A DNA stretch of 38,819 bases from a phage, in sequence record PX655591.1, one strand, 5' to 3'. The notes beneath the pieces are model-generated. The model was not told where the DNA came from. It searched no databases and saw only the letters and a list, made by a program, of their open reading frames with translations. Within the stretch, counting starts at the first letter, position 1, and every line of letters begins with the position of its first letter. A program made the translations under genes and the position numbers. Shown piece by piece: positions 2,300-38,211 of the stretch.

Positions 2300-2322
2300 A
2301 CTTAACTATCACTATAGGACTC
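2300..2322 (+). promoter_or_regulatory. Phage RNAP promoter (ACTTAACTATCACTATAGGACTC), upstream of the RNAP gene
   Basis: One of 11 near-identical 23-mers resembling T7 promoter core CACTATAGG; intergenic. Confidence 0.8.
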
Positions 2323-2391: not shown

Positions 2392-5073
2392 ATGGGCGTC
2401 ATCTCTATTGACAAACACGACTTCTCTGATGTGTCGAACGCCATTGAGCCGTTTAACCTGCTGGCTGACCACTACGGGCAAGACCTTGCAGTCAAACAGC
2501 TTCAGCTTGAGCATGAGGCATACACTGAAGGCGAGCGACGTTTCATCAAGAACCTTGAGCGCCAGACCGAGCGCGGGGAACTAGCAGACAATCAGGTCGC
2601 CAAGCCTCTTATGCAGACTCTGGTTCCTAAGATTGCGCAAGCCGTCAAGGAGTGGCATGAAGGTCCAGACGGGAAGCTGTCAACCTCTCGTCCGAGCGTA
2701 GCGTTCACCATGTTGAGTACTGAAGAGAAGGCCGTAAAGGACCGCTCTTTGCGTATCTCCTGTGAGTCTGCTGCAGTTATCATACTGAAGGTCATCCTCT
2801 CCAAGCTGGTCAAGCCTGAAGGGATACCGATTACACCGATGGCCTCCGCGATAGGTCGCACACTTGAGGATGAAATCCGATTCGGTCGAATTCGTGACAA
2901 GGAGAAGGAGCATTTCAAGAAGGCGATAGCTGATAACCTGAACAAGAGAGTCGGGGCATCATACAAGAAGGCCTACATGCAAGCGGTTGAGACATCCATG
3001 TTGGAGCAAGGTCAACTGGAAGATGCGTGGGGGACTTGGAGTCCGACCGAGGCTGTCCACGTTGGTATCAAGATGCTTGAGATTGTCATCCAGTCAACAC
3101 AACTGGTCGAGCTTAAGCGTTACGGTGCTGGCAATGCAGCGGCTGACGTTGAGATGGTCCATCTGTCAGACTTCTGGGTCAAGAAGATGGCACAAAGAGG
3201 ATTCAGCCTTGCGGGTATCGCTCCAGTCTACCAGCCTTGCGTAGTTCCACCTAAGCCGTGGACTGGTGTCGTAGGCGGTGGGTACTGGGCCAAAGGTCGC
3301 AGACCACTACCACTGATTCGATTAGGGTCTAAGTCTGCGGTGGCGCGTTATGAAGATGTGTACATGCCTGAAGTCTATGACGCTGTGAATATCATCCAGA
3401 ATACGCCTTGGAAAGTGAACAAGAAGGTGCTGGACGTGGTGAACATGGTCGAGAAGCTGAACAACACGCCTATTGATGACATCCCGCAGATGGAACCACT
3501 GAAGCCTGAGGACTATGCGGGTGAGACCGAAGAGGAACTCAAGGCATGGAAGAAGACTGCTGCTGGTATCTACCGCCGAGAGAAGGCCCGGCAGTCACGC
3601 AGATTGTCACTGAGCTTTATCGTTAACCAAGCGAACAAGTTCTCTCAGTTCAAGGCCATCTGGTTCCCGTACAACATGGACTGGCGTGGTCGCGTCTACG
3701 CTGTGCCGATGTTCAACCCTCAGGGTAACGACATGCAAAAGGGTCTACTGACTCTGGCAGTCGGCAAGCCTATTGGTGCCGATGGCTTCAAATGGCTGAA
3801 GGTCCACGGTGCAAACTGCGCGGGTGTCGATAAAGTCACCTTCGAGGAGCGCATCAAGTGGGTGGAAGACAACCACGACAACATCATGGCTACTGCTAAA
3901 GCACCGATGGATAGCATTGAGTGGTGGGGCAAGTTAGACTCTCCGTTCTGCTTCCTTGCGTTCTGCTTCGAGTATGCTGGCGTAATGCACCACGGATTGT
4001 CTTACTCCTGCTCTCTACCGATAGCATTCGATGGGTCCTGCTCTGGGATTCAGCACTTCAGCGCTATGCTTCGTGACCACATCGGTGGACATGCAGTAAA
4101 CCTAACGCCATCCGGTAAGGTCCAAGACATCTACCGCATCGTGTCTGATCGCATTGAGGAGGAACTTAAAGTCCTGCTGGTTAACGGCACGGATAACGAG
4201 ATGGTCACTCACGAGGACAAGAAAACTGGTGAGATCACCGAACGTCTCAAGCTAGGGACACGAGAGCTGGCCCGGCAGTGGCTGACTTACGGTATGTCAC
4301 GTAAGGTCACTAAGCGTTCAGTAATGACTCTGGCCTACGGGTCGAAAGAGTACGGCTTCGCAGACCAAGTGTACGAGGACATCGTGATGCCAGCGATTGA
4401 CTCAGGGTCTGGCGCTATGTTCACCGAGCCAAGCCAAGCGTCTCGCTTCATGGCTAAGATGATTTGGGAAGCTGTGAGTGTGACCGTAGTTGCTGCTGTT
4501 GACGCGATGAAGTGGCTTCAAGGAGCTGCCAAGCTGCTGGCTGCTGAAGTGAAGGACAAGAAGACTGGAGAAATCCTGAAGCCTTGCCTCCCGGTACACT
4601 GGGTCACACCTGATGGGTTCCCGGTCTGGCAGGAATACCGCAAGAAGGATACCACCCGTCTGAACCTGATGTTCTTAGGGTCATTCAACCTTCAGCCTAC
4701 CGTCAACAGAGGCACGAAGAAAGAGCTGGACAAGCACAAGCAGGAGTCAGGCATTAGCCCGAACTTCGTCCACTCACAAGATGGTAGCCACCTCCGCAAG
4801 ACTGTAGTCCACACTCACCGCAAGTATGGAGTGATGTCATTCGCAGTGATTCATGATAGCTTCGGGACCATCCCTGCTGACGCTGAGTACCTGTTCCGTG
4901 GCGTCCGGGAGACGATGGTAGAGACCTACCGCGACAACGATGTGCTGCTGGACTTCTATGAGCAGTTTGAATGCCAGCTTCACGAGAGCCAGCGCGACAA
5001 GCTGCCAGAGCTTCCGAAGAAAGGTAAACTGAATATAGAAGACATATTGTCTTCCGACTTTGCATTCGCTTAA
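2392..5073 (+). CDS. Single-subunit DNA-directed RNA polymerase (T7 gene 1-like), 893 aa
   Basis: Extensive recalled identity to T7 RNAP (e.g. DGSCSGIQHFSAMLRD, ends SDFAFA). Confidence 0.97.
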   Translation: MGVISIDKHDFSDVSNAIEPFNLLADHYGQDLAVKQLQLEHEAYTEGERRFIKNLERQTERGELADNQVAKPLMQTLVPKIAQAVKEWHEGPDGKLSTSRPSVAFTMLSTEEKAVKDRSLRISCESAAVIILKVILSKLVKPEGIPITPMASAIGRTLEDEIRFGRIRDKEKEHFKKAIADNLNKRVGASYKKAYMQAVETSMLEQGQLEDAWGTWSPTEAVHVGIKMLEIVIQSTQLVELKRYGAGNAAADVEMVHLSDFWVKKMAQRGFSLAGIAPVYQPCVVPPKPWTGVVGGGYWAKGRRPLPLIRLGSKSAVARYEDVYMPEVYDAVNIIQNTPWKVNKKVLDVVNMVEKLNNTPIDDIPQMEPLKPEDYAGETEEELKAWKKTAAGIYRREKARQSRRLSLSFIVNQANKFSQFKAIWFPYNMDWRGRVYAVPMFNPQGNDMQKGLLTLAVGKPIGADGFKWLKVHGANCAGVDKVTFEERIKWVEDNHDNIMATAKAPMDSIEWWGKLDSPFCFLAFCFEYAGVMHHGLSYSCSLPIAFDGSCSGIQHFSAMLRDHIGGHAVNLTPSGKVQDIYRIVSDRIEEELKVLLVNGTDNEMVTHEDKKTGEITERLKLGTRELARQWLTYGMSRKVTKRSVMTLAYGSKEYGFADQVYEDIVMPAIDSGSGAMFTEPSQASRFMAKMIWEAVSVTVVAAVDAMKWLQGAAKLLAAEVKDKKTGEILKPCLPVHWVTPDGFPVWQEYRKKDTTRLNLMFLGSFNLQPTVNRGTKKELDKHKQESGISPNFVHSQDGSHLRKTVVHTHRKYGVMSFAVIHDSFGTIPADAEYLFRGVRETMVETYRDNDVLLDFYEQFECQLHESQRDKLPELPKKGKLNIEDILSSDFAFA

Positions 5074-5365: not shown

Positions 5366-5388
5366 CCTAAACTATCACTATAGGATTA
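5366..5388 (+). promoter_or_regulatory. Phage RNAP promoter (CCTAAACTATCACTATAGGATTA)
   Basis: Conserved 23-mer; position matches T7 phi1.1 promoters near the primary replication origin. Confidence 0.85.
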
Positions 5389-7014: not shown

Positions 7015-7048
7015 AACCCAGTGGTCTTAGGACTGCTGGGTTTCTTTG
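7015..7048 (+). terminator. Intrinsic terminator after the ligase gene (T7 TE-like): 12-bp stem, UUAG loop, U-rich tail
   Basis: AACCCAGUGGUC-UUAG-GACUGCUGGGUU followed by TTTCTTT, read from sequence; same position as T7 early terminator. Confidence 0.7.
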
Positions 7049-7088
7049 CTTTGTGCTAGCAAGCTATCGTCTGGGCCACCAGCTGGAC

Positions 7089-7111
7089 CCTAAGCTATCA
7101 CTATAGGACTA
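7089..7111 (+). promoter_or_regulatory. Phage RNAP promoter (CCTAAGCTATCACTATAGGACTA)
   Basis: Conserved 23-mer with one substitution; intergenic. Confidence 0.8.
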
Positions 7112-7829: not shown

Positions 7830-7911
7830 GTGGTGCCGGGAGATGTATGAGAAGACTCTCAACCCGGACTACATTACGTTATACAACCAATGGAAGGAGC
7901 GCGGTTTATGA
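7816..7911 (+). CDS. Gene 1.8-like small ORF, 31 aa
   Basis: Hand translation; overlaps gene 1.7 end and gene 2 start; start codon uncertain. Confidence 0.3.
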
Positions 7912-8066
7912 CTGAGGTTGAGAAGAAATACATCGTGGAGCTTGAGGGTCGCGTTCAGTCCTTCGAGGTTCCGGTGTACGCAAAGTCTCTTGAAGAGGCT
8001 ACCCTGAAGTCCCAAGAGTATGAGGACGCTGGGTTTGTGGTAGGACGGATTCGTCCTGAGACCTAA
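7908..8066 (+). CDS. Host RNA polymerase inhibitor (gene 2-like), 52 aa
   Basis: [15 protein letters not shown]...GFVVGRIRP matches recalled T7 Gp2 (HSFEVPIYAETLDEA...GFEVTRVRP). Confidence 0.8.
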
Positions 8067-8084
8067 ACTATCACTGTAGGACAG
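8062..8084 (+). promoter_or_regulatory. Phage RNAP promoter variant (CCTAAACTATCACTGTAGGACAG)
   Basis: Conserved 23-mer with A to G at -3; upstream of SSB gene. Confidence 0.6.
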
Positions 8085-8124
8085 ACGTCCAGTTCGTAAC
8101 TTTTAAATTAGGAGATTTACACCA

Positions 8125-8823
8125 ATGGCTAAAGAGCAACTGAAGACTTTCACCACTCCGGTAGCTGGTATCGTTGAGCCTTACGCATGGCTAAACAAAG
8201 CAGACACCAAGTTCAACGAGCGTGGTGAACACAAAGTCAACCTGACATTCGACCTGAGCAACCCGAAGGTCCGTAAGATGATTGATGTCTTGCAGAAGAT
8301 TCACGACGATGCGTATGCGAAAGCACTCGCAGACCACGAGAAGAACCCACCTCAGGTTCAGCGTGGCAAGAAGCCTATTGAACCACGAGAAGGCGACATG
8401 CCGTGGATTGAGAATGGTGATGGTACTGTTACCCTGAAGTTTAAATGCTTTGCGTCTTACCTTAAAGACGGCAAGTCCGAGCCTATCGTATTACGGTTCT
8501 ACGACACTGATGCCAAACTAATCCGTGACGTCCCGAATATTGGCGCTGGGTCTAAGCTGAAGGTCAAGTTTAAAGTCCTGCCGTTCAAGTGGAACGCTGC
8601 GACTGGTGCAAGCGTTAAGCTTCAGCTTGAGTCCTGCCTTCTGGTAGAACTGAAGGAGTGGAAAGGTGATGGTGCTGGTGGAGATGGTGGTTGGGGTGAT
8701 GATGAAGACCTCGGTACTGGCTACAAAGCGTCAACCGATGGCGACTTCGGGTCTGACGACTTCGGTGACGATGGTTCCGAAGGTTGTGACGACTCTGGCT
8801 CTGGTGGCGATTACGACTTCTAA
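8125..8823 (+). CDS. Single-stranded DNA-binding protein (gene 2.5-like), 232 aa
   Basis: Recalled identity to T7 gp2.5 (ASVKLQLES...); acidic Gly/Asp-rich C-terminal tail ending DYDF. Confidence 0.95.
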   Translation: MAKEQLKTFTTPVAGIVEPYAWLNKADTKFNERGEHKVNLTFDLSNPKVRKMIDVLQKIHDDAYAKALADHEKNPPQVQRGKKPIEPREGDMPWIENGDGTVTLKFKCFASYLKDGKSEPIVLRFYDTDAKLIRDVPNIGAGSKLKVKFKVLPFKWNAATGASVKLQLESCLLVELKEWKGDGAGGDGGWGDDEDLGTGYKASTDGDFGSDDFGDDGSEGCDDSGSGGDYDF

Positions 8824-9278
8824 TGGCCCAATGGTCTGCAAAACGGGGGCACTCTGTGGGTGCCTACCGCTCTGGACTTGAAGCCAAGAACCAGCAGTGG
8901 CTGGAACAGAACGGCGTCAAAGCGGAGTACGAAAGCCATTATATCAACTATGTGATTCCGGCTTCCGACCACAAGTATACACCAGACTTTATCCTTCCCA
9001 ACGGCATCATCGTGGAGACCAAAGGTATCTTCGATAGTGATGACCGTAAGAAGCACCTTCTGGTACGAGAGCAGCACCCAGAGTTAGACATCCGGTTCGT
9101 GTTCTCAAGTTCCCGCTCCAAGCTATACAAAGGGTCTCCTACCACGTATGGCGCATGGTGCGAAAAGAACGGCTATAAGTATGCCGATAAATTCATACCG
9201 GTTGAGTGGCTTCGAGAGGCGACTGTACGTCTGCCTTCAGGTATCCTCATCCCCAAGAAGAAAGGAGTTAAGTTATGA
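8823..9278 (+). CDS. Endonuclease I, Holliday junction resolvase (gene 3-like), 151 aa
   Basis: YTPDF...VETKG...DDRKKHLLVREQHPELDIRFVFSS matches recalled T7 endonuclease I. Confidence 0.95.
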   Translation: MAQWSAKRGHSVGAYRSGLEAKNQQWLEQNGVKAEYESHYINYVIPASDHKYTPDFILPNGIIVETKGIFDSDDRKKHLLVREQHPELDIRFVFSSSRSKLYKGSPTTYGAWCEKNGYKYADKFIPVEWLREATVRLPSGILIPKKKGVKL

Positions 9279-9745
9279 CTCAGAAATATAGACTTAAGGC
9301 TAATTTTAATGGGTGGCCAGCAGGTACTATCGTTACAAAATGTACGAAAGACCCGTACCCAACGCCGGGAGCGACTCTGGTAGAAACCTCCCAGCCTGGC
9401 ATCTACAAACACGGAGCGGAAGGTTATGACACTCAGCCTGACGGTATGTGGGGAGCGTGGGTTGTAACTAATCAGCTTGAGGAAATTGTAGAGGATAAAC
9501 CTCAAGTCCTTCCAGCTTCGAGCGTACCGCCTGTGACTGTGAAGCGTGAAGTCCTGACCATCGACAAGATTGGTGTGGGCCAGACGTTCATCGTACATGG
9601 CCAGCCTGACGAAGTGTACGTGAAGATTAGCAACTCTCACGTCTTCAACCATAAGCGTCTCCAGATGCACACCACGGACGCACAACGCTTCACCCAGCAC
9701 CTGAATCTGGTGGTCGTAGAATTGGTGGTGTACAATGGTAAGTAA
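9275..9745 (+). CDS. Hypothetical protein, 156 aa, inserted between endonuclease I and lysozyme
   Basis: RBS AAAGGAG; ATGA overlap with gene 3 stop; no recognisable motif. Confidence 0.6.
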   Translation: MTQKYRLKANFNGWPAGTIVTKCTKDPYPTPGATLVETSQPGIYKHGAEGYDTQPDGMWGAWVVTNQLEEIVEDKPQVLPASSVPPVTVKREVLTIDKIGVGQTFIVHGQPDEVYVKISNSHVFNHKRLQMHTTDAQRFTQHLNLVVVELVVYNGK

Positions 9746-10193
9746 GGTACAGTTCAACCCACGGTCCCGGACTGACGCTATCTTCGTCCACTGTTCGGCT
9801 ACCAAGCCAGAGATGGACATAGGGGTAGAGACCATCCGTATGTGGCACAAGCAGCAAGGCTGGCTGGATGTAGGCTACCACTTTATCATCAAGCGCGATG
9901 GCACTGTGGAAGAGGGGCGCCCGGTCAATGTCGTAGGGTCACATGTTAAGGACTGGAACTCACGGTCTGTAGGCGTCTGCCTTGTAGGTGGAATCAACGC
10001 TAAGGGTCAGTTTGAAGCTAACTTCACTCCAGCCCAGATGAACTCCCTGCGCAACAAGCTGGCTGACCTGAAGTCCCTGTATCCTCAGGCAGAAATCAAA
10101 GCACATCATGACGTAGCACCAAAGGCGTGTCCAAGTTTCGACTTACAGCGCTGGATGTCTACCAACGAACTGGTCACTTCCGACCACGGTTAA
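9735..10193 (+). CDS. N-acetylmuramoyl-L-alanine amidase / T7 lysozyme (gene 3.5-like), 152 aa
   Basis: TDAIFVHCSATKP...GWLDVGYHFIIKRDGTVEEGR...AHHDVAPKACPSFDL...NELVTSD matches recalled T7 lysozyme. Confidence 0.95.
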   Translation: MVSKVQFNPRSRTDAIFVHCSATKPEMDIGVETIRMWHKQQGWLDVGYHFIIKRDGTVEEGRPVNVVGSHVKDWNSRSVGVCLVGGINAKGQFEANFTPAQMNSLRNKLADLKSLYPQAEIKAHHDVAPKACPSFDLQRWMSTNELVTSDHG

Positions 10194-10216
10194 TAAACTC
10201 TAAAGGAGAACACTCA

Positions 10217-10432
10217 ATGATTAAACTTATCGAATTTCTTGGTCGTCTGGTGGTGCGTGGTTATCGTCGTGCTGCGGTTATGGAACGAAAGGTAGCAGAG
10301 AAGACTGCTGAAGGTGCGGCTGATGCTGCTGCTCTGAGTGACAAGCTGACCATCGCGTCACTGGAAGCAGGCATGAAGGCACGTCAAGCTGACACCAAAG
10401 CTGACCAGTTGGCCCAGTTCTTCAAAGCCTAA
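10217..10432 (+). CDS. Hypothetical protein, 71 aa, N-terminal hydrophobic segment plus Ala-rich helical region
   Basis: RBS AAAGGAGAA; in-frame part of track ORF 10127-10432; product unknown. Confidence 0.55.
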   Translation: MIKLIEFLGRLVVRGYRRAAVMERKVAEKTAEGAADAAALSDKLTIASLEAGMKARQADTKADQLAQFFKA

Positions 10433-10450
10433 ACTATCACCTTAGGGATG
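10428..10450 (+). promoter_or_regulatory. Degenerate phage promoter-like 23-mer (CCTAAACTATCACCTTAGGGATG)
   Basis: Shares 5' half and GGGA start region with consensus but has CT for TA at -4/-3; function uncertain. Confidence 0.35.
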
Positions 10451-10497
10451 GGACCATGAGTCCTGTCCCTTTGTTCGCATTTATGATTAAGGAGTGA

Positions 10498-12201
<1,704 letters not shown>

Positions 12202-12212
12202 GGAGGAGTACA

Positions 12213-12377
12213 TTGTTAAGAAAACTTAAAGCCCGCTACCACATGTTCATGTACAAATGGTGGAGCGATGAAGCAACCTGCCTGTCGAACATTCTGGGAG
12301 ACCAAAGGTTCGAATCTAAGGCATGGAAGAAGGCTAACCGTAAGTTCATGTACCACTTCTTGCGTACAGACTTCTAG
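12213..12377 (+). CDS. Hypothetical small protein (gene 4.3/4.5 position), about 54 aa; start uncertain (TTG 12213 or ATG 12243)
   Basis: AAGGAGG RBS at about 12202-12208; within track ORF 12180-12377. Confidence 0.35.
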   Translation: MLRKLKARYHMFMYKWWSDEATCLSNILGDQRFESKAWKKANRKFMYHFLRTDF

Positions 12378-12380
12378 GTC

Positions 12381-12416
12381 TAGACTCAAGGTCATTCACA
12401 TCGAGTGGCCTTTATT
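12381..12416 (+). promoter_or_regulatory. RNase III-type processing hairpin (TAGACTCAAGGTCATTCACATCGAGTGGCCTTTAT)
   Basis: Same conserved flanks and stem as the 5386 and 35433 sites; intergenic before DNA polymerase. Confidence 0.6.
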
Positions 12417-12441
12417 ATTATTAGACTAAACGGAGGAAAAC

Positions 12442-14454
12442 ATGGACTTAAGTAACATATATGGGTCTGACATCGAGACCAACGGTCTCCTTGATACAGT
12501 CTCCCAGTTTCACTGTGGGGTCCTGATTAACGCCGAGTCGAATGAGACCCTTAAGTATGGGGTAGCTCCGATGGTTGGTATCGTCGGTGGCTTCAAAGAG
12601 TATGTGCGTAAAGTGGAAGAGATTGCCGCATCGCCTGATGGTATGCTGGTATTCCACAACGGTATCAACTATGACGTCCCAGCTATTGACAAACTGAAAC
12701 GTCTGTACTTTGGGAAACGTTTTAACTTCCCGAAACACAAGATGATTGATACCTTGGTGCTGGGCCGCTTGATGTATCCAAACATTAAGTTCTCAGACAT
12801 GGGGGCGGTGAAAGCTGGACGTCTTCCACCTAATATGATGGGACGCCAGTCTCTTGAGGCTTGGGGCTATCGTCTCGGTGAGATGAAGGGCGAGTACAAA
12901 CACGATTACGTTGCCAAGTGCAAGGCCGAAGGTATCGAATATAAGGCTGGGGACGAATGGTTGTTCCCGTCTCAGGAGATGCTGGACTATAACGTTCAAG
13001 ACGTTGTGGTCACACTGGCGTTGTTCAAGAAGTTCCTGACTGACAAGTATTACTTCCAGTCTGAAAAGTTCGCTTTCGAGCAGATTTATGCGTTGCGTCT
13101 GGAACATGATGCTGCGTGGACCTGTGCGAAGATGGAACGTAACGGCTATCCGATGAACACAGAGATGGTCGAAGGCTTATATCGTGAACTCACCATCAAA
13201 CGTGCGGAGTTACTGGACAAGCTGCGCTCTACTTTCGGTAGCTGGTATGCACCGAAGGGAGGCAAGGAGTTCTTCAGACATCCACGGACAGGTAAGGATC
13301 TTCCGAAGTATCCGCGAGTCGTGTACCCTAAGGTCGGTGGCATCTTTAAGAAGCCGAAGAACAAAGCCCAACGCTTAGGTCTTGAACCTTGTGAACTCGA
13401 TACGCGAGACACAATGGAAGGAGCACCATTCACTCCAATCACTTACGTTGAGTTTAATCCGGGAAGCGGCGACCACTTAGCGAAAGTCCTGATGGAGCGT
13501 GGCTGGGAGCCTGTGGACTTCACTGACACAGGGAAACCTGTAGTCGATGACGAGACGTTAGAACACGTTAAGTTACCAGACGCAGAGGCTCAGGCTTGCG
13601 TAGAGCTTGTCCGTGAGTATCTGGTGGTCCAGAAGCGCATCGGTCAGGCTGCTGAAGGTAAGAACGCATGGTTGAAACTTGTAGGTCCAGACGGACGTAT
13701 GCACGGTTCAATCAACACATGTGGTGCAGTGACCGGACGTGCGACCCATAGCTCACCAAACATGGCTCAGGTCCCGGCTAACGGTGCTCCATATGGTGAG
13801 ACTTGCCGTGGTGCTTTCGGTGCAGCGTGGAACAAGAAGGATGGTAAGCCAGACCCTTGGATTCAAGTAGGTGTGGATGCTTCAGGTCTTGAGCTTCGTT
13901 GTCTGGGGAACCGAGCTGCTCCGTTTGATGGTGGTGCATATGCGAAGACTGTAGTCGAAGGTGACATCCACTGGGCAAACGCAGTCAACGCTGGGTTAGC
14001 ACCTAACGTCCCACGCGATAAGTCGAGCCACGACCATGATGCTTTCCGTAACAACGCTAAGACGTTCATCTATGCGTTCCTGTATGGTGCAGGGGCCGCT
14101 AAGATTGGACTGATAGTCGGAGGTGGTAAGAAGGAAGGTTCAGCTCTCATGAAGAAATTCATTGAGGGTACACCAGCCATCAAGGACCTCAGGGAAGCTG
14201 TGAGTAATACGTTAATCTCAGACTCTAAGTGGGTAGATGGTGAGAACATCGTGAAGTGGAAACGTCGCTGGCTGAAAGGTCTGGACGGTCGACGCATTCA
14301 CATCCGGTCTCCACACTCAGCACTTAACGCCTTACTTCAGGGGGATGGTGCGGTAGTCTGTAAGCACTGGATTGTTGAGGTAGAGCGTATGCTGGAAGCC
14401 GAAGGATACGTCCACGGCTGGGATGGAGACTTTGCGTACATGGCATGGGTGCAT
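12442..14454 (+). CDS. DNA polymerase (gene 5-like) exon 1, 671 codons, ends ...FAYMAWVH
   Basis: Recalled identity to T7 DNAP including thioredoxin-binding loop KVGGIFKKPKNKAQR; ORF ends exactly before the motif C Asp codon. Confidence 0.95.
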
Positions 14455-15052
14455 TAACATCATGGTGCACATTAAATCTGGTGAACTCGGTGAACTCCTA
14501 ATGGGACAATACCGAGCCAAGCCATAGGGAGGATGTATGAGAGGCAAGAAGTTAATTCTTGAGGCCACTGAGACTGGCTGCATAATCCCTACGTCACATA
14601 AATTGAATCAGGATGGATACTTCCGAAAGAGGACTAACGGTGTCCTTGAGATGTATCATAGAACTGTATGGATTAAAGCTAATGGTCCAATACCTGACGG
14701 TTTCGAAGTAGACCACAAGTGTCGTAATAGAGCTTGTTGCAACGTCGAACATCTACAAGTATTAGACCGGGACTCACACTTAGTCAAGACCAACAAAGAG
14801 CGATACGCTGCTAGGAAGCTAGAAGCACGAGACTACTGGGTAGAGACTGGGTGTACTGGAACGAAGTTAGCCGAAGTGTTCAATGTGTCGTTCTCAGCCG
14901 CCTGTGGGTGGATTAGAGAGTGGAAGGCGTAGAGACTATCCGAAAGGAGTAGGGCCGTGGGTGAGATTCCCACGTAACCCGAAGCGCCAGACAGTCACCT
15001 CAAAGACTGATGATATAGTCCGACACTTCCAGTAATGGGAGAATACAGAAAG
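14455..15052 (+). mobile_element. Group I intron (about 598 nt) in the DNA polymerase gene, carrying an HNH endonuclease ORF
   Basis: Exon 1 ends in U that can pair with G of intron GUGCAC (14465-14470); AGACUAU (14933-14939) pairs with AUAGUC (15015-15020) as P7; G at 15052; downstream exon restores DNAP C-terminus in frame. Confidence 0.8.
14537..14932 (+). CDS. Intron-encoded HNH homing endonuclease, 131 aa
   Basis: HNH motif GPIPDGFEVDHKCRNRACCNVEHLQV; RBS GGGAGGA; ORF stops 1 nt before the P7 core element. Confidence 0.85.
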   Translation: MRGKKLILEATETGCIIPTSHKLNQDGYFRKRTNGVLEMYHRTVWIKANGPIPDGFEVDHKCRNRACCNVEHLQVLDRDSHLVKTNKERYAARKLEARDYWVETGCTGTKLAEVFNVSFSAACGWIREWKA

Positions 15053-15208
15053 GATGAGTTACAGATTGCTTGTCGTACTCAAGAAATAGCAGAACGTACA
15101 GTAGAAATTGCTCAACTTGCTATGCGTAAGGTGGGCGAGTTCTATAACTTTAAATGTGTCCTTGATACCGAAGGTAAGATTGGACCAACGTGGAAGGAGT
15201 GTCACTAA
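15053..15208 (+). CDS. DNA polymerase exon 2, 51 codons plus stop (DELQIACRT...GPTWKECH)
   Basis: Matches recalled T7 DNAP C-terminus DEIQVGCRT...GPNWAICH; no start codon or RBS of its own at the junction. Confidence 0.85.
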   Translation, partial: DELQIACRTQEIAERTVEIAQLAMRKVGEFYNFKCVLDTEGKIGPTWKECH

Positions 15209-15498
15209 TGGCTATGACCAAACGTATGCGAGTTTCATTCTCGCTGGGCTCTGTACTGTCTACTGAAGACGTTGAGCACTTCAAGAAGTCTCTCTGTGAT
15301 TTGAGCCGTAAGGTTCTCAATGGTGAGAAGACCACTGGCTTCGAGCGTAAGATGGTCGAGGTAGGCGTTACAGAGGGTCTGGAAGCTGTGGTAGAGCTTG
15401 TCTTTAAGAAAGGCATTGTTGATGGCCTGAAAGAAGACCTGAGTAATTACGCTGACCAACCCAGCTTCGGAGACTTCCGAGTGGAGTTCAAGCAATGA
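15208..15498 (+). CDS. Gene 5.5-like protein (T7 gp5.5 is an H-NS binder), 96 aa
   Basis: Begins MAMTKR as recalled T7 gp5.5 MAMTKK; TAATG overlap with DNAP stop. Confidence 0.7.
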   Translation: MAMTKRMRVSFSLGSVLSTEDVEHFKKSLCDLSRKVLNGEKTTGFERKMVEVGVTEGLEAVVELVFKKGIVDGLKEDLSNYADQPSFGDFRVEFKQ

Positions 15499-15704
15499 GT
15501 GAATACTTACGGGTCCTTGCGGCCCTTAAGTCCTGCCCGAAGACCTTTCAGTCAAACTATGTGCGCAACAACGCTGCACTTGTGGCTGAGGCTGCGAGTC
15601 GTGGACATCTAAGCTGCCTGTCTATGGATGGGCGTAACAACGGTGCGTGGGAGATTACGGCTGCTGGCACCAAGTTCCTTAACCAACATGGAGGCTGCCT
15701 GTGA
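15495..15704 (+). CDS. Gene 5.7-like protein, 69 aa
   Basis: LKSCPKTFQSNYVRNNAALVAEAASRGH...GAWEITAAGTKFL closely matches recalled T7 gp5.7. Confidence 0.85.
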   Translation: MSEYLRVLAALKSCPKTFQSNYVRNNAALVAEAASRGHLSCLSMDGRNNGAWEITAAGTKFLNQHGGCL

Positions 15705-16567
15705 GCGAAAAGAAGATAGCTCTGGTTCTGGATGGCGACTATCTGGTCTTCTCTTCTATGGCTGCTGCCGAGGACGAGACTGACTGGGGTGATGACATCT
15801 GGACCCTTATCTGCGATCATGATAAGGCTCGTCGTATCCTTGAGAACACCATCGCTGAAATCGTTAAGAAGCGAAAGGCGTGGAAAGACGCTAAGATTGT
15901 GATGTGCTTCACCGATGACGTGAACTGGCGCAAGTCAATATTACCTACCTATAAGGCCAACCGTAAAGGTTCTCGCAAGCCTGTAGGTTACAAGAAGTTC
16001 GTAGCCGAAGTGATGGCTGACCCACGGTTCAACAGCTTCCTGCGTCCTACGCTTGAGGGTGATGACTGTATGGGTATCATCGGGACACGACCTCAGATTG
16101 TAGGCTGTGATCATGCGGTTCTGGTATCCTGCGATAAGGACTTCAAGACCATCCCGAACTGTGAGTTCTTCTGGTTAACCACTGGTGAAATCCTGAGTCA
16201 TACGACTGCTGAGGCAGACTACTGGCACATGGAGCAGACCATCAAGGGTGACACTACAGATGGCTACGGTGGCATTCCGGGGATGGGTGAGGATACCACT
16301 CGTGCGTTCCTTGACGAGCCGTACTACTTCGTGCAGGAGAGCCGTGAACTTAAGACTGGTAAGAACAAAGGCCAGATTAAGACTGAGTGGAAGAAGTATC
16401 CGAAGCGTGAAGATATGACGCTGTGGGACTGCATGGTGACTCTGGCTGAGAAAGCCGGGATGACTGAAGAAGAACTTCTGGTCCAAGCTCAGGTAGCTCG
16501 TATCTGTCGAGCCTCCGACTACAACCCTAAGTCCAAGGAGGTCATCCTGTGGACACCATCCATGTAA
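15701..16567 (+). CDS. 5'-3' exonuclease (gene 6-like), 288 aa, GTG start
   Basis: CDKDFKTIPNCEF...TIKGDTTDGYGGIPG...LWDCM matches recalled T7 gene 6 exonuclease. Confidence 0.95.
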   Translation: MSEKKIALVLDGDYLVFSSMAAAEDETDWGDDIWTLICDHDKARRILENTIAEIVKKRKAWKDAKIVMCFTDDVNWRKSILPTYKANRKGSRKPVGYKKFVAEVMADPRFNSFLRPTLEGDDCMGIIGTRPQIVGCDHAVLVSCDKDFKTIPNCEFFWLTTGEILSHTTAEADYWHMEQTIKGDTTDGYGGIPGMGEDTTRAFLDEPYYFVQESRELKTGKNKGQIKTEWKKYPKREDMTLWDCMVTLAEKAGMTEEELLVQAQVARICRASDYNPKSKEVILWTPSM

Positions 16568-16693
16568 TATACTGGGCCGGACTTCTAGCCATTTACTGCA
16601 TGTACAAGTGGTTCGGGTCGAACAACCGTCCTAAACAATGAGTCTAACCGATAGTCATATCCTATCAATACTACAGTCATCCATAGGTGAAAC

Positions 16694-16716
16694 ACTAAAC
16701 TATCACTATAGGGACT
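16694..16716 (+). promoter_or_regulatory. Phage RNAP promoter (ACTAAACTATCACTATAGGGACT)
   Basis: Conserved 23-mer; position matches T7 phi6.5. Confidence 0.85.
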
Positions 16717-16777
16717 TTAGGACCTAAGATATGACTATAAGATAGACTTTAGTCTTAACTTAAAGAGGAGATTCAAG

Positions 16778-17950: not shown

Positions 17951-19519
17951 ATGGCTGAACGTGAAGGGTTCGCTGCTGAAGGAGCCAAAGCGGTCTATGA
18001 CCGACTGAAGAACGGTAGACAGCCATATGAGACACGCGCTCAGAACTGTGCTGCTGTCACTATCCCGTCACTGTTTCCTAAGGAGTCCGACAACTCGTCT
18101 ACTGAGTACACAACTCCGTGGCAAGCTGTAGGTGCTCGCTGCTTGAACAACTTGGCTGCAAAGCTGATGTTGGCGTTATTCCCTCAGTCACCATGGATGC
18201 GACTAACAGTCTCAGAATATGAGGCCAAGACCCTGAGTCAGGACTCAGAGGCTGCTGCTCGTGTTGACGAAGGGCTTGCTATGGTAGAGCGTGTGTTGAT
18301 GGCCTACATGGAGACCAACAGTTTCCGTGTCCCATTGTTCGAGGCTTTGAAGCAGCTTATCGTCTCCGGTAACTGTCTGCTCTACATTCCAGAGCCTGAA
18401 CAGGGAACCTACAGTCCTATGCGAATGTACCGCTTAGTGTCCTACGTTGTTCAACGTGACGCTTTCGGTAACATCTTGCAGATTGTGACTCTCGACAAGG
18501 TAGCGTTTAGTGCTCTACCGGAAGACGTGAAGTCTCAACTCAATGCAGACGACTATGAGCCTGACACCGAGCTGGAAGTGTATACGCACATCTACCGTCA
18601 GGACGACGAGTATCTGCGCTACGAGGAAGTGGAAGGCATTGAGGTAGCAGGGACAGCTGGTTCCTACCCGCTTACCGCCTGTCCTTACATCCCGGTACGA
18701 ATGGTTCGATTGGACGGTGAAGACTACGGTCGTTCTTACTGCGAGGAATATCTGGGAGACCTGAACTCGCTGGAGACGATTACAGAAGCTATCACAAAAA
18801 TGGCTAAGGTAGCCTCCAAGGTAGTGGGCCTCGTTAACCCGAACGGAATCACGCAACCTCGACGTCTGAACAAGGCGTCTACAGGTGAGTTCGTGGCTGG
18901 TCGAGTTGAGGACATCAACTTCCTGCAACTGACGAAAGGTCAGGACTTTACGATTGCTAAGTCGGTGGCTGATGCTATCGAGCAACGTTTAGGCTGGGCC
19001 TTCCTTCTTAATAGTGCTGTTCAGCGTAATGCCGAGCGAGTCACTGCTGAAGAGATTCGTTATGTTGCTGGCGAACTGGAGGCGACCTTAGGTGGTGTGT
19101 ACTCAGTACAATCACAAGAGCTTCAGTTACCTATCGTCCGTGTGTTGATGAACCAGCTTCAGTCTGCTGGCATGATTCCTGACCTTCCGAAAGAAGCGGT
19201 AGAACCTACGGTCTCCACTGGTCTGGAAGCGTTAGGCCGTGGTCAAGACTTAGAGAAGCTGACTCAGGCAGTCAACATGATGACAGGGCTACAGCCTCTG
19301 CAACAGGACCCAGACATTAACTTGCCGACACTGAAGCTGCGACTGCTGAACGCCTTAGGCATTGACACCGCTGGTCTACTGCTTACTCAGGACGAGAAGA
19401 TTCAGCGCATGGCTGAACAATCAGCTCAAGGAGCCGTGGTCAACGGTGCGTCTGCTGCTGGTGCTAACATGGGTGCTGCTGTAGGTCAGGGAGCTGGTGA
19501 GGACATGGCTCAAGCCTAA
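17951..19519 (+). CDS. Portal (head-to-tail connector) protein (gene 8-like), 522 aa
   Basis: Extensive recalled identity to T7 gp8 (YETRAQNCA...TIPSLFPK...RMVRLDGEDYGRSY). Confidence 0.97.
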   Translation: MAEREGFAAEGAKAVYDRLKNGRQPYETRAQNCAAVTIPSLFPKESDNSSTEYTTPWQAVGARCLNNLAAKLMLALFPQSPWMRLTVSEYEAKTLSQDSEAAARVDEGLAMVERVLMAYMETNSFRVPLFEALKQLIVSGNCLLYIPEPEQGTYSPMRMYRLVSYVVQRDAFGNILQIVTLDKVAFSALPEDVKSQLNADDYEPDTELEVYTHIYRQDDEYLRYEEVEGIEVAGTAGSYPLTACPYIPVRMVRLDGEDYGRSYCEEYLGDLNSLETITEAITKMAKVASKVVGLVNPNGITQPRRLNKASTGEFVAGRVEDINFLQLTKGQDFTIAKSVADAIEQRLGWAFLLNSAVQRNAERVTAEEIRYVAGELEATLGGVYSVQSQELQLPIVRVLMNQLQSAGMIPDLPKEAVEPTVSTGLEALGRGQDLEKLTQAVNMMTGLQPLQQDPDINLPTLKLRLLNALGIDTAGLLLTQDEKIQRMAEQSAQGAVVNGASAAGANMGAAVGQGAGEDMAQA

Positions 19520-19537
19520 ACTATCACTATAGGAACA
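19515..19537 (+). promoter_or_regulatory. Phage RNAP promoter (CCTAAACTATCACTATAGGAACA)
   Basis: Conserved 23-mer overlapping portal stop; position matches T7 phi9. Confidence 0.85.
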
Positions 19538-20551: not shown

Positions 20552-20574
20552 ACTAAACTATCACTATAGGGAGA
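20552..20574 (+). promoter_or_regulatory. Phage RNAP promoter, best consensus match (ACTAAACTATCACTATAGGGAGA), phi10-like
   Basis: Identical to T7 core CACTATAGGGAGA; followed by GGGAGACC...GTTTCCC 5' stem-loop as in the T7 gene 10 leader. Confidence 0.9.
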
Positions 20575-21852: not shown

Positions 21853-21892
21853 AAACCCCTTGGGTGCCTTCGGGTGCTTGAGGGGTTTTTTG
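21853..21892 (+). terminator. Tphi-like terminator for phage RNAP (CCCCTTGGGTGCCTTCGGGTGCTTGAGGGGTTTTTTG)
   Basis: Near-identical ends to T7 Tphi (AACCCCTTGGG...CTTGAGGGGTTTTTTG); directly after capsid gene. Confidence 0.85.
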
Positions 21893-21906
21893 CTTAAGGA
21901 GGGGTT

Positions 21907-24872: not shown

Positions 24873-24895
24873 CCTTAACTATCACTATAGGGACT
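24873..24895 (+). promoter_or_regulatory. Phage RNAP promoter (CCTTAACTATCACTATAGGGACT), phi13-like
   Basis: Conserved 23-mer; intergenic. Confidence 0.85.
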
Positions 24896-31700: not shown

Positions 31701-32591
31701 GATGACCGCTGGCTGAAGACCGCTGGTATCTCTGACGAGCAGTGGAAGGGCATTAAGTCCCTAATCCGTGAGTCAGTGACTCGTGGTCCAGACGGGAAGT
31801 ACACCATCAAGGATAAGAAGGCGTTCAGTCAGGACCCAAGGGCTATGGACCTGTGGCGTATGGGCGACACCATCGCTGATGAAACGTTACTCCGTCCTCA
31901 TAAGCTGTCCAACATGGACGCCAAGGCTTATGGTCCTCTCGCTAAGACTGTCCTTCAGTTTAAGAACTTCGTCATCAAGTCCATCAATGGGCGAACCATG
32001 CGAACCTTCTATAACGCCACGAAGAACAACCGAGCGATGGACGCTGCCCTGTCCACTGTGATGTCTATGGGTCTTGCTGGTATCTACTACATGGCTCAGG
32101 CTCACGTCAAGGCTTACGCTATGCAGGACGGTCGAGACAGAGATTACCTCAAGCAAGCTCTGGACCCAACGATGATTGGCTATGCGGCCCTGTCCCGTAG
32201 TTCACATCTTGGTGGGCCACTTGGGGTAGCTAACATTCTTGGTGGCATCGCTGGATACGAGGACACTAAGATGCTTCGTTCGTCTATCCTCCCGCGTTCA
32301 CCTACAGAGAAGCCTGAACGTGCCATAGCAGATGGTGCGGCTACAAGTGACCCTGTGATGAATGTCGTCGGTAACTTCTTGGAGCAGGTCCCGGCTTTCG
32401 GCTATGCTGCTAACGTTGGTGCCTCGGCGTACAACTTGGCTGGCTACCTCAAGGCTGATACTCGTGTCAATGAGCGAGACTACATGACAGGGATGTATAA
32501 CACGTTCCGAGAACTTGTCCCGAACGACCCGATTACCCAGAAGCTGCTACTTGGGACGTTTGAGGAGCAAGGTATCCACATAAAGGACTAA
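28695..32591 (+). CDS. Internal virion protein D (gene 16-like), 1298 aa, with non-T7 N-terminal domain
   Basis: Middle and C-terminal regions match recalled T7 gp16 (ARETARN...DLVRSPTGMQSG...GTYVPHVY...AYGISH); N-terminal about 120 aa (RNANPGNIR...) lacks the T7 SLT motif. Confidence 0.9.
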   Translation: MATRGVRNANPGNIRKSKDQWEGAIGDDGEFVIFDSPESGVRALAKNLQSYGRQGYDSIEKIINRWAPPNENDTQSYINSVVSATGIPATQSLDLSDPDTLSSLAQAIGYHETGSRYDPEVYKTGVSRALSGAGGISPKTPPVSANVFDALTEGLKAKPKVSLGENLPTAAGLNIEGQAPEAPNESFGEMFYKATGETMQEREDRSTWFGFGAATEAEVKNSMVGVAIRAGQTEDSLDVIGDVFNPTRWNNHKWTREELDQIRNAGVLPQYYGVITGGSPQNLTELINLALENQKLDQEKAKAGTGAQLAAGVIGAGVDPLTYVPIAGQVGKGGKLVNKMFTVAAQSGALAGASEIARTSVAGGDAHVAEAIMGGALFGGGMTAIGDAIGKALGKSTNEFAGPATRLEARETARNVDGQDLSRMPIREGEETFSHQGVKFADVPNEPGSVRLEDGSILIGENPLNPKTRQVFDEVIEPERAAAGVNLGGLTEIGLKLLRSENPEIRGVAADLVRSPTGMQSGSSGKIGTTASDVFERLRAVDHRFYNDIDDAVTEALKDPYFQTAFWRDSGAFRQDIYQRVSMAIEDGSGNLKAELTPGELKVYDLLKNQFDAKREMMENPAMFGRPDAQSIFPGSRFKGTYVPHVYSKQMKELYIKELGSPEALQEAIKKSWLTSYASRPEVKKRVDEALLEADPTLTPEGLAAAVDKYANDKAYGISHTEQFERSSVMEENINGLVGLENNSFLEARNLFDSDMSIVLPNGQTFSVNNLREWDMDKIVPAYNRRVNGDIAIMAGTGKTTKEMKDLVETMMNKAGDDGKLKGEVSTLRDTLKILTGRARRDGADDAAFATVMRTMTDLSFFAKNAYMGVQNLTEIGGMLARGNVRALLHGVPMFRDLAFRNKKVGASEIKDLHNVIFGKELDDSIRPSKQDVIDRLRSYSSLSKPTATALGSAKYYTGELAVRSPFTKVLNGTTNYLLDAGRQGFLSDIVEHSLTGSKRKFDDRWLKTAGISDEQWKGIKSLIRESVTRGPDGKYTIKDKKAFSQDPRAMDLWRMGDTIADETLLRPHKLSNMDAKAYGPLAKTVLQFKNFVIKSINGRTMRTFYNATKNNRAMDAALSTVMSMGLAGIYYMAQAHVKAYAMQDGRDRDYLKQALDPTMIGYAALSRSSHLGGPLGVANILGGIAGYEDTKMLRSSILPRSPTEKPERAIADGAATSDPVMNVVGNFLEQVPAFGYAANVGASAYNLAGYLKADTRVNERDYMTGMYNTFRELVPNDPITQKLLLGTFEEQGIHIKD

Positions 32592-32609
32592 ACTATCACT
32601 ATAGGAAAC
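32587..32609 (+). promoter_or_regulatory. Phage RNAP promoter (ACTAAACTATCACTATAGGAAAC), phi17-like
   Basis: Conserved 23-mer overlapping gp16 stop; followed by GGGAC...GTCCC leader hairpin. Confidence 0.85.
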
Positions 32610-38188: not shown

Positions 38189-38211
38189 ACTTAACTATCA
38201 CTATAGGGAAG
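38189..38211 (+). promoter_or_regulatory. Phage RNAP promoter near the right end (ACTTAACTATCACTATAGGGAAG), phiOR-like
   Basis: Conserved 23-mer after the terminase gene. Confidence 0.8.

Follow-up and report, generated by a model that had tools for sequence, protein, structure and literature searches.

Phage promoters of the window and the two variant copies

The window, that is, the whole 38,819-nt stretch of phage DNA analysed here (PX655591.1), is the genome of a K1F-like (Kayfunavirus) phage of the T7 family and contains 11 promoters for the phage RNA polymerase (Table 1). Throughout the window the core CACTATAGG occurs exactly nine times, always on the + strand, compared with 0.34 expected from shuffled sequences, bearing out a sequence-only reading of this DNA that had listed nine promoters with a common core. 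A search with the 18-mer consensus CTAAACTATCACTATAGG, allowing up to three mismatches, returned exactly 11 sites (0.03 expected). When the window was scored with a position weight matrix (PWM) for which the nine consensus copies served as input, these copies reached 33.6-37.6 bits, and the best non-promoter site 14.3 bits. The promoter binding element of this genome is CTAAACTATCAC.

The other two promoters precede the genes for the single-stranded DNA-binding protein (SSB) and the primase-helicase, and, as the same reading had noted, both carry substitutions in the core: A-3G in the former, and T-4C with A-3T in the latter, in an alignment with T7 numbering. The SSB copy, with CACTGTAGG at 8072-8080, matches the 18-mer consensus at 17 of 18 positions and scores 28.6 bits; the gene 4 copy, with CACCTTAGGG at 10438-10447, matches at 16 of 18 and scores 25.3 bits, and in both the segment from -16 to -5 is exact. 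Their leaders measure 46 nt to the ATG of the SSB gene and 56 nt to the primase-helicase gene, and those of the other nine promoters 30-186 nt to the next gene. Each variant is intergenic and co-directional, with the upstream ORF ending within the TAA of the promoter itself (8064-8066 and 10430-10432). The segment 8062-10450, to which the earlier reading referred, extends from -17 of the SSB promoter to +6 of the gene 4 promoter.

Both variants lie in the DNA-metabolism region, between the TE-like terminator and phi6.5, and the gene 4 copy is the sole promoter across the 8.6 kb from 8079 to 16711. No convincing terminators were found between 7052 and 21867, and no known RNA family in Rfam matched anywhere in the window.

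Table 1. Promoters, genes and RNA elements of the window considered in this study
Feature	Coordinates	Strand	Basis or remarks
Consensus-core promoter upstream of gene 1	2300..2322	+	Pattern and PWM
Gene 1, single-subunit RNA polymerase, K1F-type specificity loop	2392..5073	+	63% identity to T7 RNAP
phi1.1 consensus promoter	5366..5388	+	Pattern and PWM; TATA in 25/25 relatives
Terminator-like hairpin and T-run after ligase gene	7015..7052	+	Place of T7 TE (early terminator for host RNAP)
phi1.5/1.6 consensus-core promoter, G at -12	7089..7111	+	Pattern and PWM; TGTA in 4/25 relatives
phi2.5-type class II promoter CCTAAACTATCACTGTAGGACAG, A-3G in melting element (TGTA)	8062..8084	+	-17 to +6, +1 = G8079
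Gene 2.5, single-stranded DNA-binding protein	8125..8823	+	Pfam SBB_T7, E=1.1e-72; relatives' annotation
Gene 3.5, amidase/lysozyme homologue	9735..10193	+	Pfam Amidase_2; 68% identity to T7 lysozyme
phi3.8/phi4-type class II promoter CCTAAACTATCACCTTAGGGATG, T-4C and A-3T (CTTA)	10428..10450	+	-17 to +6, +1 = G10445
10-bp stem-loop GGGAUGGGAC/GUCCUGUCCC, gene 4 leader	10445..10469	+	Start exactly at predicted +1
Gene 4, primase-helicase	10501..12201	+	Pfam Helic-prim_T7_N, Toprim, DnaB_C
phi6.5 consensus promoter	16694..16716	+	Pattern and PWM; TATA in 23/23 and 24/24 relatives (two counts)
phi9 consensus promoter	19515..19537	+	Pattern and PWM; TATA in 25/25 relatives
phi10 consensus promoter	20552..20574	+	Pattern and PWM; TATA in 25/25 relatives
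Terminator-like hairpin and T-run after capsid gene	21867..21894	+	Place of T7 Tphi
phi13 consensus promoter	24873..24895	+	Pattern and PWM; TATA in 22/22 instances found
phi17 consensus promoter	32587..32609	+	Pattern and PWM; K1F promoter comparison
phiOR consensus promoter	38189..38211	+	Pattern and PWM; K1F promoter comparison

Conservation of the variant promoters and of the gene 4 leader

We compared the promoter slots at the loci around the SSB and capsid genes in 25 related genomes, mostly of >90% identity, so that the counts are not independent observations: TATA was present in 96 of 96 instances at the late slots phi6.5, phi9, phi10 and phi13, and in 0 of 59 at the SSB, gene 4 and pre-gene-5 slots (phi2.5, 0/24; phi3.8/4, 0/24; phi4.x, 0/11). 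At phi2.5, 17 of 24 relatives had TGTA and seven TTTA, and at phi3.8/4, where CTTA, CTAA, TAAA and TTAA occur, CTTA was found in 19 of 24; reversion to TATA was seen at neither. An invariant TATA at the late slots together with its absence from the middle slots implies that the difference matters functionally. In a scan of IMG/VR for AAACTATCACNNTAGG, most of the matches listed fell singly on contigs outside the set of K1F-like genomes, and the scan was not drawn on for the counts.

Conservation of both variant promoters extends to more than 20 genomes. A sister lineage has promoters that read TTAAACCCTCAC, and at its phi2.5 slot the binding element follows the consensus of that lineage and the G at -3 is retained; a base other than A at -3 of this slot was found across three unrelated leader contexts.

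The gene 4 promoter can be aligned with T7 phi3.8 and its leader, including the common motif CCCTTTGTTCGCATT. Its leader in the window folds at -21.5 kcal/mol (z = -3.2), and a hairpin beginning at +1 was present in the folds of every relative and also in those of T7 phi3.8 and phi10. The upper stems of this hairpin vary among the relatives, with a compensatory change from G7:C19 to A7:U19; these hairpins were folded variant by variant, the MAFFT alignment being out of structural register between lineages.

Predicted promoter strength and alternative explanations

The two sites are, in all likelihood, genuine conserved class II promoters of the phage's own RNA polymerase, the counterparts of T7 phi2.5 and phi3.8, that would fire more weakly than the consensus copies. 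Their sequence, position and conservation, and their orthology to promoters of T7 and K1F, are established by the sequence comparisons, and a lower strength would be expected from T7 data and from the perfect partition between TATA and non-TATA slots. With the binding element (-17 to -5) intact, recognition by the polymerase should be normal; the changes are confined to the melting element at -4 to -1 (TATA to TGTA and TATA to CTTA), which in T7 governs open-complex formation and initiation, not binding. Because the substitutions lie only in this element, fewer firings than at the nine consensus promoters would be expected. In agreement with this, a review states that substitutions at -4 to -1 affect initiation more than binding, and describes class II promoters as weaker (PMC11617373).

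Activities for the same base changes beside an intact binding element, CACCTTAGG itself and CACTGTAGG in combinations, are available from the in vitro T7 RNAP promoter library of Komura et al. 2018 (PMC5937735, S2 File). Among the library entries compared here, the CTTA double change in the T7 context (TAATACGACTCACCTTAGG; CACCTTAGG) gave 3.63, about 2% of the wild-type value of ~169; -3G, an effect derived from four combination mutants and not from a single mutant, gave ~9-22% of the matching parent, -3T ~12-17%, -4C ~6% and -2A ~82-95% (PMC5937735). If such values transfer, TGTA would lower output about 5-10-fold and CTTA tens-fold. They may not transfer, since T7 RNAP and the polymerase of the window share only 63% identity and differ in the intercalating hairpin, where the latter has A at the equivalent of T7 V237. 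In the specificity loop of the window's enzyme, the equivalents of N748 and Q758 are kept and that of R756 is N. The library entries were obtained in vitro with T7 RNAP and T7 binding elements, whereas the enzyme of the window is of K1F type and acts in infection. Searching the literature for transcription starts mapped in Kayfunavirus gave nothing relevant.

The suggestion of the sequence-only reading that the two copies are weak or non-functional therefore divides. Both variants are probably weaker than the consensus copies, the support being indirect on both counts, by proxy from the low values in the T7 library and from the late-TATA/middle-non-TATA partition in relatives. That they are non-functional is unlikely in view of the intact binding elements, the lineage-tracking in the sister lineage, the conservation in more than 20 genomes and, for gene 4, the hairpin at +1.

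Weak promoters at these places would add a modest and tunable amount of transcription across the DNA-replication genes to the read-through from the upstream consensus promoters at 2317, 5383 and 7106. In T7, lysozyme drives the switch from class II to class III promoters (PMC6938266), and by analogy the gp3.5 homologue is a candidate for inhibiting the phage RNAP, with weak promoters shut off preferentially. As this protein accumulates, the two variant promoters would be silenced first and the polymerase shifted to the late promoters, a lysozyme-mediated switch that we infer from T7 only. We think it rather unlikely that the off-consensus state of the Kayfunavirus replication-gene promoters is actively selected, with weakness or kinetics being adaptive; if it were, these promoters could owe their advantage to hypersensitivity towards the lysozyme-RNAP complex or towards the concentration of the initiating NTP, and CTTA would form a separate very-low-output or specially regulated subclass of promoters for K1F-type polymerases.

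Other explanations fared less well. One, which we consider improbable, is that TGTA and CTTA make no difference to the K1F-type polymerase, the two promoters being as strong as the consensus and the substitutions neutral. The divergence of the enzyme from T7 RNAP, including the hairpin that opens -4 to -1, would allow for such tolerance, as would the presence of TGTA at up to four slots in the genus. Neutral variants, however, should turn up sporadically at late slots, which is at odds with the complete partition described above, and a G-to-A change restoring TATA was never seen, while G/T exchanges occur.

Still less probable is that the sites are decaying, non-functional relics and that the genes downstream are expressed solely by upstream read-through. 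Read-through is possible, as no convincing terminator separates 7052 from 21867, and the activity of the CTTA double change in the T7 library entry is very low, but 2% of a very strong promoter is still usable. Decay would also be expected in the binding element, which is instead exact from -16 to -5 in the window and in relatives and co-varies with lineage specificity, and the compensatory change maintains the hairpin at +1. A genome of K1F specificity, L013, has a heterologous promoter before gene 4, with ACACT for ACTAT at -12 to -8, suggesting that this slot can be dispensable given another promoter downstream; yet all genomes without the extra pre-gene-5 promoter, the window among them, have a promoter of the cognate type before gene 4.

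We give equally little credence to an RNA-level reason, such as RNase III or another processing structure in read-through transcripts, in place of promoter strength. T7 has an RNase III site, R3.8, directly 3' of the phi3.8 start, which counts in favour of this reason, and in the read-through fold A-1 and C-4 add marginal pairing with the sequence that flanks the hairpin on its 3' side. Consensus bases would nevertheless pair about equally well, the phi2.5 slot has its non-A base at -3 whichever of three unrelated leaders follows it, and no Rfam family was matched. RNA structure as the reason for the substitutions was rejected, as the extended read-through folds at the two promoters did not improve on those of shuffled sequences (z = -1.3 and -0.45). 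Sequencing error was dismissed on account of identical variants in more than 20 independent genomes, and coding constraint on -4/-3 because both positions lie beyond the upstream ORFs, which end at 8066 and 10432.

Comparison with K1F, CR44b and T7

For this phage the results have little import beyond annotation, confirming a genome with the standard K1F-type promoter set and showing that Kayfunavirus shares the split known from T7 between consensus late promoters and middle promoters off the consensus. K1F-type polymerase is in use as an orthogonal polymerase in synthetic biology. The natural TGTA, TTTA and CTTA sequences could be used with it as off-the-shelf attenuated promoters, but only with their strengths measured.

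Among the records listed, Mt1B1_P3 and CR44b are closest to the window, at ~93% overall identity. Phage K1F (NC_007456) has the same set of 11 promoters, located by pattern search as the RefSeq record has no promoter features, with the identical 18-mers CTAAACTATCACTGTAGG and CTAAACTATCACCTTAGG at the same gene junctions and near-identical leaders; in Citrobacter phage CR44b (HG818823), CTAAACTATCACTGTAGG and CTAAACTATCACCTTAGG are annotated as 'predicted promoter' features. There is no difference of substance between the promoters of the window and those of K1F and CR44b, and the extra pre-gene-5 promoter of some other members of the genus is absent from both the window and K1F.

In T7, phi2.5 at the gene 2/2.5 junction (CACTATTAGGG) and phi3.8 at the gene 3.5/4 junction (TGAACTCACTAAAGGG) occupy the same positions as the two variants and are also non-consensus, whereas the T7 class III promoters are all identical. 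In both phages the departures from the late consensus fall in the initiation half, but the substitutions differ, T7 phi2.5 having -1T/+1A and phi3.8 having -2A plus changes at -13 to -11. All 10 class II promoters of T7 are off-consensus, compared with two of the five early/middle promoters of the window, and the HNH gene 3.8 that lies between phi3.8 and gene 4 in T7 is absent from the window. Both phages have the hairpin of the phi3.8 leader and the CCCTTTGTTCGCATT motif. The two variants are thus ordinary, conserved middle-gene promoters of K1F-like phages and T7, neither decaying nor novel, and the pattern to which they belong is already known from T7-type class II/class III biology.

Promoter set of the window

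The core CACTATAGG occurred exactly nine times in the window, as the sequence-only reading had counted, with every copy on the + strand (expected 0.34), and the two off-consensus copies that it had placed before the SSB and primase-helicase genes were borne out in every detail (CACTGTAGG at 8072-8080 and CACCTTAGGG at 10438-10447, respectively). A longer consensus, CTAAACTATCACTATAGG, matched exactly 11 sites with three or fewer mismatches (expected 0.03). A position weight matrix trained on the nine consensus copies gave these copies 33.6-37.6 bits and the two variants 28.6 and 25.3 bits, while no other site scored above 14.3. Promoters of this type consist of a polymerase-binding half (-17 to -5) and a melting element (-4 to -1). 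In T7 numbering, with the C of CAC at -7, the substitutions are A-3G in the SSB copy and T-4C plus A-3T in the gene-4 copy, and positions -16 to -5 are exact in both. Start codons lie 46 nt (SSB) and 56 nt (gene 4) downstream, similar to the distances at the other nine promoters. At four promoters, the conserved TAA at -15 to -13 also terminates the preceding gene, namely gp2 (8064-8066), a 71-aa ORF (10430-10432), portal (19517-19519) and gp16 (32589-32591). Coding constraint on the variant bases was rejected, since -4 and -3 lie outside ORFs.

Mt1B1_P3, CR44b and ST31 are among the many Kayfunavirus genomes (K1F-like Studiervirinae) that share 93-94% identity with the 4-kb stretch around the variants. 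The gene order of the window is that of T7, with the structural genes downstream of gp4. The DNA polymerase gene is split by an insert of about 600 bp, and the same gene is annotated as a two-piece join in the K1F record; no group I intron was found by Rfam at the gathering threshold.

Features of the window discussed in the text
Feature	Position	Strand	Remark
Consensus-core promoter	2300-2322	+	75 nt upstream of RNA polymerase gene
RNA polymerase	2392-5073		63% identity to T7 RNAP
Terminator-like hairpin, host-type	7015-7052	+	After ligase gene; counterpart of T7 TE
Host-RNAP inhibitor gp2	7890-8066		Pfam
SSB gp2.5	8125-8823		Pfam
Amidase/lysozyme gp3.5	9735-10193		Pfam; 68% identity to T7 homologue
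Primase-helicase gp4	10501-12201		Pfam
RNase III-like hairpin	12388-12412		-19.9 kcal/mol, z = -3.0
DNA polymerase, first part	12466-14454		T7 gp5 residues 4-653
Insert	14455-15052
HNH endonuclease ORF	14537-14932		Within insert; Pfam HNH_3
DNA polymerase, second part	15053-15205		T7 gp5 residues 654-704; different frame
Degenerate promoter-like site	16724-16741		14/18 match, 14.3 bits
Terminator-like site	21867-21894	+	After capsid gene; counterpart of T7 Tphi

The promoter preceding the RNA polymerase gene, which T7 lacks, would let the enzyme stimulate its own synthesis (positive autoregulation). Relatives conserve this promoter, some with TAAA or TGTA in place of TATA. The degenerate site (CTAAGATATGACTATAAG), 29 nt downstream of phi6.5, has G at the critical -7 and a leader with no significant fold (z = -0.07); it is kept in most K1F-like relatives examined and may be the relic of a tandem promoter.

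Variant cores in related phages

Neither variant is confined to this genome. All eleven promoters recur in the type species K1F, where gene 2.5 is preceded by CTAAACTATCACTGTAGG and gene 4 by CTAAACTATCACCTTAGG, and in the GenBank entry for Citrobacter phage CR44b both, with identical cores, are labelled 'predicted promoter'. We classed promoter slots by their -4 to -1 tetranucleotide, using 24 related genomes for the region of the SSB gene and 23 for that of the capsid gene. TATA stood at 0/59 of the three middle slots versus 96/96 of the late slots (phi6.5, phi9, phi10 and phi13), counts that are not independent because the genomes are related. Each middle slot showed several non-consensus states, and the single transition back to TATA was never seen in the surveyed genomes.

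Tetranucleotide at -4 to -1 by promoter slot
Slot	TATA	Other states
phi1.1	25/25	none
phi2.5	0/24	17 TGTA, 7 TTTA
phi3.8/4	0/24	19 CTTA, 3 TAAA, 1 CTAA, 1 TTAA
Extra pre-gene-5 (some genomes)	0/11	9 TGTA, 2 TTTA
phi6.5	24/24	none
phi9	25/25	none
phi10	25/25	none
phi13	22/22	none

In a sister lineage (L017, L019 and L023), promoters read TTAAACCCTCAC, and phi2.5 carries the lineage's own binding element in a different leader context yet retains G at -3; it thus tracks polymerase specificity, which is not the behaviour of a dead site. A more distant phage, L024, has a consensus core before gene 2.5, so the off-consensus pattern is genus-level and not universal. The related genome L013 (IMGVR_UViG_3300045988_000160) has a sister-lineage promoter, TTAAACACTCACTAAAGGG, before gene 4 (12052-12090), differing at -10 and -9, and all its other promoters are K1F-type; this indicates recombination at the slot, and the promoter is probably non-cognate.

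An additional off-consensus promoter separates gene 4 from the DNA polymerase gene in some relatives (e.g., CTTAACTATCACTGTAGGATAGACTCAAGG). It is absent from the window (12370-12445: …CTTCTAGGTCTAGACTCAAGG…) and from K1F, leaving the gene-4 promoter as the only one between 8079 and 16711 in the window. The RNase III-like hairpin that follows the extra promoter in relatives is kept in the window and resembles the T7 phi1.1A leader.

Expected strength and proposed working

As a proxy for strength we used the RNA/DNA read ratios that Komura et al. (2018, PMC5937735) tabulated in the supplement for their T7 promoter library. These values are for T7 RNAP and the intercalating hairpin of the window's enzyme differs (Ala at the V237 equivalent), so they are only a guide: in that table the wild type gave 142-188 (mean 169, taken as 100%), the -4C/-3T double mutant CACCTTAGG in T7 context 3.63 (~2%), -4C with a near-neutral change 10.9 and 6.9 (~6%), -3T ~12-17% of parent, -3C 83 and 53 (31-49%) and -2A 161 and 138 (82-95%). 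For -3G, four combination mutants in the same table retained roughly 9-22% of parent: 3.93 with -10T (versus ~30 for -10T alone), 7.3 with -15T/+2C (versus 77 for that parent), 9.3 with +2T and 15.6 with three upstream changes.

If the K1F-type enzyme tolerated the variants, the substitutions would be neutral, a reading hard to reconcile with the slot counts; the perfect genus-wide partition, independent of the T7 data, argues that this enzyme also tells TATA from non-TATA. The view that the variants are non-functional relics draws on L013, whose non-cognate gene-4 promoter beside a downstream pre-gene-5 promoter shows that the slot can be redundant, but it is contradicted by the binding element, intact and co-evolving with the lineage, and by the conserved +1 hairpin. 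The gene-4 leader, with the hairpin GGGAUGGGAC/GUCCUGUCCC, folds at -21.5 kcal/mol (z = -3.2), and a hairpin starts from +1 in every relative and in T7 phi3.8 and phi10, varying among relatives by a compensatory change (G7:C19 to A7:U19) and in the upper stem; this conservation fits a transcript truly starting at 10445. Of the earlier suggestion that the two copies are weak or non-functional, weakness is reasonable by the library proxy and loss of function unlikely. RNA structure in read-through transcripts was unsupported as a reason for the substitutions (extended folds, z = -1.3 and -0.45), and no known RNA family was found by Rfam.

Genes 2.5 to 6 could be covered by read-through from the upstream consensus promoters (2317, 5383 and 7106), since the window's only convincing + strand terminator-like sites are those after the ligase and capsid genes, and the two variant promoters would add smaller increments on top. 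In T7, gp3.5 lysozyme makes transcription move away from class II promoters and towards class III (PMC6938266); the same switch would be plausible here, since a gp3.5 homologue is encoded.

Comparison with T7

T7 itself matches the consensus perfectly at its five class III promoters and at phiOR, whereas phiOL and every one of its ten class II promoters depart from it, phi2.5 being CACTATTAGGG and phi3.8 TGAACTCACTAAAGGG. The gene-4 promoter of the window is a sequence homologue of phi3.8, both having a hairpin exactly from +1 followed by CCCTTTGTTCGCATT. The variant promoters conform to the usual class II pattern among T7-like phages.
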